In this document: one piece after another, positions 5,158 through 5,541 of the stretch
Numbering within the stretch: position 1 is the first letter of the stretch
Layout: the number at the start of each line of letters is the position of its first letter
From: a virus
Taxonomy: Duplodnaviria > Heunggongvirae > Uroviricota > Caudoviricetes
IMG/VR virus record: IMGVR_UViG_2531839195_000008
Length of the DNA: 6,272 nt
Direction: 5' to 3' (one strand)
The notes under the pieces: model-generated
The model's input: the letters and a program-made list of their open reading frames with translations, nothing else
Told to the model about the DNA's origin: nothing
Database searches by the model: none
Position numbers and translations under genes: made by a program

Positions 5158-5498
5158 TTAATTCTGAGGGAAACGCATTTCCAGATGGTGCTCAATGTCA
5201 CCATCCGGGCCAGTACCAGGATCGATGTAATCCACATCAATACTCAGCAGGGATAAATCCGGCAGGGCATTCACGTCCTCTGCCTGTCGCGTGTCTTCTT
5301 CCGTGATTTCATACTTCGCCGTAAAATCAAACTGGTAATACAGTTCGTAACGGTTCAGATCCAGCAGGGTGCCACCGACATAAACAATCTCGCCCCCTTG
5401 CGGGTCCGGCATCCATCCAAGCAGGGCTTTCCAGAGTTCTCTCCGGACATCATGAACGGCGTCATAGGCTGCCCACTGCCCTTTTTCATCACGCTCAT
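5158..5498 (-). pseudogene. 3' fragment of a phage virion/tail gene truncated by the IS3-family insertion
   Basis: The 118-aa ORF-track protein starts MPVHL, but those 5 codons (5514-5500) lie inside the IS terminus. The native part (NERDEKGQWAAYDAVHDV...EMRFPQN*) begins exactly at the IS boundary and ends with TAA at 5160-5158. Its N-terminal part must lie beyond the IS, outside the window. Confidence 0.6.
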
Positions 5499-5526
5499 TG
5501 AGGTGTACTGGCAATAGCGGACACTA
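5499..5526 (-). repeat. IS3-family terminal inverted repeat (the end proximal to the orfB stop)
   Basis: TGAGGTGTACTGGCAATAGCGGACACTA on plus; on the transposase strand it ends ...CA-3', the usual IS3-family TG...CA terminus. IR length is approximate. Confidence 0.55.
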
Positions 5527-5541
5527 CCATTTATTCTTTTT

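Follow-up and report, generated by a model that had tools for sequence, protein, structure and literature searches.

Interruption of the tail terminator gene by IS600 in a phiP27-like prophage remnant

Tail module in the window

The window, the whole stretch of 6,272 nucleotides analysed here, carried part of a phage tail module lying between two insertion sequence ends (Table 1), and all of its long ORFs were on the minus strand. The closest sequenced phage was the Stx2e phage phiP27, which covered 88% of window 144-5498 with 96.6% DNA identity; the tail module had more distant relatives in SfV, SfII and SfI (about 77%). The parent was considered to be a phiP27-like prophage with an HK97-type head and a Mu/SfV-type contractile tail. 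The window was compared with the prophages of E. coli FDAARGOS_944 and TD225-C4 (L001, L002) and with ten distinct related loci of Shigella type (L006-L013, L015 and L016). Several of the related chromosomes are those of S. flexneri strains G1663, 2013C-3749, AR-0424 and ATCC 29903 (PMC9455713 table), and L015 is from S. flexneri SFBU1023.

Table 1. Coordinates of the features assigned in the window.
Feature	Position	Strand	Basis or remark
IS1 (presumed), terminal 143 bp, ending ...AAGTTGGAGTCATTACC	1..143	.	distal limit of phage remnant; L001 homology starts at 144
DNA-circularization protein gene, 31-nt 5' stub cut by IS1	144..174	-	window 144 = L001 2939
160-aa AT-rich accessory gene (moron-like)	221..703	-	lipoprotein-type signal MIKPFLMTVAILTSC...; strong terminator-like hairpin 215-193 follows
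Tape measure gene, 649 aa, intact	771..2720	-	Pfam; phage comparison
Tail assembly chaperone gene, frameshifted	2805..3139	-	native ATG at 3139; A7-to-A6 at about 3105-3110
Tail tube gene, frameshifted	3139..3494	-	native ATG at 3494; T7-to-T6 at about 3465-3471
Tail sheath gene, 498 aa, intact	3494..4990	-	Pfam; phage comparison
DUF2635 small gene, 53 aa, intact	4987..5148	-	Pfam
Tail terminator gene, 3' fragment	5158..5498	-	residues 75-187 of 187 and stop; PF23840; alignment to L001, L002, phiP27 L43
118-aa ORF, MPVHLNERDEKGQW...	5158-5514	-	TTG start; ORF list
Target-site copy, CAT on plus strand (ATG in gene orientation)	5496..5498	.	L008/L009 junctions; empty site
IS600 (IS3 family), right-hand part	5499..6272	-	774 bp, runs off window
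IS600 right terminal inverted repeat TGAGGTGTACTGGCAATAGCGGACACTA	5499..5526	.	common start of three copies; IRL/IRR comparison in L008
IS-derived codons TTG CCA GTA CAC CTC (MPVHL)	5500..5514	-	supply ORF start; sequence read directly
IS600 transposase orfB, 3' part	5542-6272	-	rve-type; same orientation as tail genes

Two genes of the module were disrupted by single-base losses. The tube gene was shifted after codon 9 and ran into a stop at codon 19, and the 141-aa ORF (3139-3564) was a frameshift chimera in which an out-of-frame N-terminus was joined to the tube frame. The chaperone gene was shifted after codon 11, and the 144-aa ORF (2805-3239) was likewise a frameshift chimera. Both shifts set the window apart from all ten Shigella-type loci, E. 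coli L001 and phiP27, which carry the 7-base runs; the two homopolymer losses could be real mutations or sequencing errors.

The 160-aa ORF between the tape-measure and DNA-circularization genes had a GC content of about 37%, compared to about 52% in the tail genes. It was present in E. coli FDAARGOS_944 and missing in phiP27 and E. coli TD225-C4. It matched phrog_5586 (unknown function), and a Pfam scan of the ORF gave no hit. The ORF looks like a moron. An Rfam scan of the window gave no match.

The end sequence at 1-143 was recognised as what we take to be an IS1 terminus, and an IS1 transposase (PF03400) was called at this position in L006-L013. IS1 leaves 31 nt of the 5' end of the DNA-circularization gene and takes away all that followed, so that the baseplate (and fibre) genes are missing. 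In the related loci, an ipaH-type gene with LRR_TTSS and NEL domains was located a few kb past the IS1 end. The region beyond IS1 in L006-L013 (about 15389-19344) contained, besides this ipaH-type effector gene, a second IS600 truncated at its 5' end and a tail-fibre fragment with DUF4376; in L011 the ipaH-type gene was itself broken by an IS4-type (DDE_Tnp_1) element. The presence of the tail-fibre fragment and the ipaH-type gene beyond IS1 indicated that the remnant is part of an ipaH-carrying prophage island.

IS600 and the interrupted gene

The right-hand part of the window, attributed to an IS3-family insertion in the earlier note, could be assigned to IS600. Window 5499-6272 showed 98.4-99.2% identity, far above chance, to copies annotated 'IS3-like element IS600 family transposase'. 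The comparison covered 5426 complete E. coli genomes, 3010 of which contained IS600-annotated matches (thousands of RefSeq copies). The sequence TGAGGTGTACTGGCAATAGCGGACAC starts at window 5499, which is the right end of IS600 (TGAGGTGTACTGG...), in agreement with the previously proposed terminus at about 5499. In three E. coli copies of IS600 with unrelated flanks, located in a hydratase gene, ninB and an integrase gene, identity with the window began exactly at TGAGG, 5499. Some IS600 BLAST alignments began slightly earlier (5481-5493); these were regarded as chance extensions, since the extension lengths varied among hits with different flanks. The empty sites in L001 and L002 were the same as the window through 5500 and unrelated from 5501. 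The boundary thus has a 2-base overlap, as the phage bases following the target (TG) are identical to the first two bases of the IS.

The right end, TGAGGTG at 5499, had the 5'-TG ... CA-3' form of IS3-family terminal repeats. The complete IS600 at the same site in related genomes was 1264 bp long with TGAGGT-initiated inverted repeats (8753-10016 in L008), and IRL (TGAGGTAGCCTGAG...) and IRR (TGAGGTGTACTGGC...) of the L008 copy agreed in the first 6 bases and in the ACGGACAC/GCGGACAC block. The orfB part in the window matched the profiles rve, rve_2, rve_3 and HTH_21, as in a DDE transposase. As orfA and the frameshift site lie beyond the window, the frameshift features were read from RefSeq copies, which are joined CDS annotated 'programmed frameshift', and from L008, with an A7G motif at IS position 316. 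The copy in the window lacked 27 bp at about 5972-5973 that were present in all other copies examined, a gap that broke each IS600 match into two pieces. This deletion was in frame, had 2-bp microhomology at its flanks and removed the residues TQEGWLYLA right behind WVADLTYVA of the DDE catalytic core. Because the deletion falls within the catalytic core, the IS600 of the window can probably not provide its own transposase.

The phage sequence next to IS600 was traced to an unbroken gene in relatives. Window 4900-5498 gave full-length matches to 52 E. coli records, in which the sequence runs on into an unbroken 564-nt gene named 'phage tail terminator protein' in RefSeq. Its product is a 187-aa protein orthologous to phiP27 L43, and residues 75-187 are left in the window. 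The proposal that the gene upstream of the sheath had been truncated was therefore borne out, and its phage counterpart could be named. Over the retained residues, identity was 96% with phiP27 L43 and 100% with the prophage protein of E. coli FDAARGOS_944. A full-length relative matched PF23840 (Phage_tail_terminator) with 105.1 bits, and the window fragment with 42.6 bits over model positions 83-147 of 150 only (curated cut-off, 27 bits). The gene order in L001, L002 and phiP27 was connector, head closure, tail completion/Neck1, tail terminator, DUF2635, sheath and tube. The predicted tail terminator function, capping of tube and sheath and joining of the tail to the head, rests on Pfam, the RefSeq naming and this gene order. 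When the full-length terminator was compared with PDB sequences, no solved structure was found, the sole match, to farnesyltransferase (E = 0.035), being spurious. The whole terminator orthologue (L001 9259-9822) was also matched by phrog_209 (E = 1e-59), labelled 'portal protein' in PHROGs. This label disagrees with Pfam, with the RefSeq name and with the order of genes; moreover, these prophages possess a distinct portal gene (PF04860). The two halves of the terminator corresponded to separate families, phrog_10113 (78 positions) and phrog_5122 (108 positions), which may have been built from IS-split copies.

Alignment of the 118-aa ORF to the 187-aa relatives resolved it into MPVHL followed by native N75 to N187 (113 residues), confirming the earlier view of a chimera of five IS codons and the 3' part of a phage gene. 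Codons 1-5 (5514-5500) lie entirely inside the IS. The first base of codon 6 (AAT) comes from the IS (5499) and the other two from the phage, so that the native Asn75 was restored by coincidence. ORF finders call the chimera because the IS end bears an in-frame TTG. No Shine-Dalgarno-like sequence was found before this TTG on the minus-strand sequence read. With the first half of the terminator domain missing and no recognisable ribosome-binding site, the 118-aa chimera is most likely a pseudogene remnant; a terminator protein missing half its domain would not cap the tail.

Junctions in the related loci and alternative readings

The other end of the element was found in related loci. L008 and L009 read, in gene orientation, ...GTGCTCAGCA-ATG / IS600 (1264 bp) / ATG-AGCGTGATG..., and as the empty site has a single ATG, the copies on both sides represent a 3-bp target duplication. 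The window covers one IS end only, with one of the two copies. On the far side, L008 and L009 carried a 77-aa ORF composed of 74 native residues followed by N, V and R, which matched the first half of PF23840 with 53.8 bits. Both the duplication and the N-terminal 74 codons, which the earlier note expected beyond the window, were accordingly present in these two loci. L008 also keeps the terminase, portal, protease-capsid and connector genes and has a further IS600, in inverted orientation, within its head-closure gene.

A different arrangement was observed in L006, L007, L010-L013, L015 and L016, mostly Shigella flexneri, in which the left end of IS600 abuts a truncated IS66-family transposase gene. 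The junction there was ...GATGACACTC or ...CTCT, with CTC or TCT as the left flank and without target duplication; the N-terminal half of the terminator was gone, and 1603 bp of phage DNA were missing relative to L009. The two arrangements are distinguished at the IS600 left end by the junction signatures ...GTGCTCAGCAATG/TGAGGTAGCC (simple interruption) and ...GATGACACTC(T)/TGAGGTAGCC (deleted type). Simple insertion occurred in two of the ten distinct related loci and the deleted arrangement in eight, and a junction scan of the GTDB species representatives detected two loci only (L015, L016), both of the deleted type. The gene is hence 5'-deleted rather than merely interrupted in most related genomes. 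One extra T was seen at the junction of the IS66-family element with IS600 in L011, L015 and L016. The end point of the truncated IS66-family element agreed to within 2 bp between L009 (7140-7160), where it joins the 3' end of the capsid gene, and L007 (8740-8760), where it joins the IS600 left end; speculatively, a second IS600, since lost, was once located at this end point.

As the window stops inside IS600, its own arrangement was inferred from the sequence outside the IS. The non-IS sequence differed from L012 by two 1-bp gaps only. The T at window 3647 is derived, since the E. coli prophages and phiP27 carry A, and was otherwise seen only in three loci with the deleted arrangement (L006, L012 and L013). 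This single SNP suggests that the window's own genome probably has the deleted arrangement. The alternative is that, as in L008 and L009, IS600 is still followed directly by the ATG duplication and the N-terminal 74 codons, the far end of the element being outside the window. In view of the derived T and the predominance of the deleted arrangement among the related loci, simple interruption only is considered doubtful for the window's genome.

Two further readings were considered. One takes the 118-aa ORF as a real short gene that evolved independently and has a start of its own, and it is true that the ORF is called in many assemblies and that phrog_5122 covers only this part. The exact chimera is deposited in GenBank, for example as 'hypothetical protein SFxv_2265' of S. 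flexneri 2002017 (ADA74411.1) and also as an S. flexneri 'bacteriophage protein', and a shorter 84-aa call is deposited for S. flexneri strains 301 and 2457T. Such a gene would, however, have its first 15 nt within the IS600 terminal repeat, start at a TTG preceded by no Shine-Dalgarno-like sequence and match PF23840 at model positions 83-147 of 150 only, whereas the uninterrupted relatives are 187 aa long and 96-100% identical over the common part. An exact look-up of the 118-aa protein, in which eight loci with 10-kb flanks (L006-L013) were read, found IS600 directly upstream in all eight. No full-length homologue beginning with MPVHL was found, and the IS boundary lies at the TG terminus. 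This reading is very improbable. The other supposes a contig mis-joined at a repeated IS, giving a false junction; IS600 is highly repeated, and the homopolymer indels and the 27-bp gap absent in relatives hint at imperfect sequence. Against such an artefact, the identical junction was present in at least nine independent complete chromosomes, the exact chimera occurred in 470 blocks of the assembly collection, and the 3-bp duplication was clean in L008 and L009, so that an assembly error is hardly credible.

Decay of the prophage and comparison with known systems

We assign a probability of about 0.93 to the whole account of an IS600 insertion in the tail terminator gene of a phiP27-like prophage, a probable later deletion and truncation by IS1. 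In this account, IS600, encoding a DDE transposase via programmed -1 frameshift, would have transposed into codon 75 of the 187-codon terminator gene in an ancestor of Shigella flexneri. The gene would have been broken in two, with a 3-bp duplication (ATG) at the insertion, and residues 75-187 would have stayed beside the DUF2635-sheath-tube-chaperone-tape measure genes. An IS-associated deletion would later have taken the proximal half together with the remaining head-tail joining genes in most descendants, probably including the window's genome. IS600 would since then abut the truncated IS66-family element, as seen directly in the related loci and presumed for the window, and the opposite end of the module would have been truncated by IS1. 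The related loci together form a decay series, in which insertion with target duplication was followed by adjacent deletion and then by a further IS1 insertion. This stepwise IS-mediated erosion is a possible marker of S. flexneri lineages. The 118-aa, 141-aa and 144-aa ORFs of the window are, in annotation, better treated as pseudogene fragments than as proteins.

A simple scan of 4800-6272, including the interval from the transposase stop to the sheath, detected neither a minus-strand terminator-like hairpin nor a sigma-70-like promoter. Any transcription of the sheath gene would consequently have to start within or beyond the IS. A hybrid promoter formed by the TTGCCA hexamer of the IS600 right end and a flanking -10 was considered and dropped, as the hexamer 17 nt downstream was TGATGA and the scan was negative. 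Read-through from IS600 into the tail genes is possible on sequence grounds, since IS600 is co-oriented with them and no minus-strand terminator-like site intervenes. Late transcripts of lambdoid phages, when antiterminated by Q, are in principle able to cross an IS, and a Q gene and a holin gene were located upstream in the related loci. The question of expression, raised in the earlier note with the suggestion that sheath, tube and tape measure would depend on read-through or a cryptic promoter, is largely moot because the baseplate genes are missing and the tube and chaperone genes are frameshifted in the window; the whole is a non-functional prophage remnant. It appears quite improbable that the IS-bounded sheath-tube-tape-measure block beside ipaH has been retained via read-through from the co-oriented IS600 for some host function, rather than having merely not yet decayed.

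The fragment resembles phiP27 L43 and the other PF23840 proteins in its place between the tail-completion gene and DUF2635-sheath, but differs in that five IS-encoded residues replace residues 1-74 and with them half of the Pfam domain. The element agrees with IS600 of Shigella and E. coli in identity over 774 bp, a TG-initiated repeat and an rve-type DDE transposase, and the complete same-site copies in related genomes also share the 1264-bp length, the A7G frameshift motif and the 3-bp target duplication; the 27-bp in-frame deletion, in contrast, is the window copy's own. Five IS, IS600 and IS1 among them, have expanded in every Shigella species (Hawkey et al. 2020, PMC7373316), and a large share of the pseudogenes of these bacteria is due to IS insertion (PMC7373316). 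The locus has both IS600 and IS1 and differs in nothing material from the IS-driven pseudogenisation and prophage erosion described there. The event is already known in kind, an ordinary case of prophage decay that adds nothing new in principle beyond the known IS expansion in Shigella (PMC7373316).
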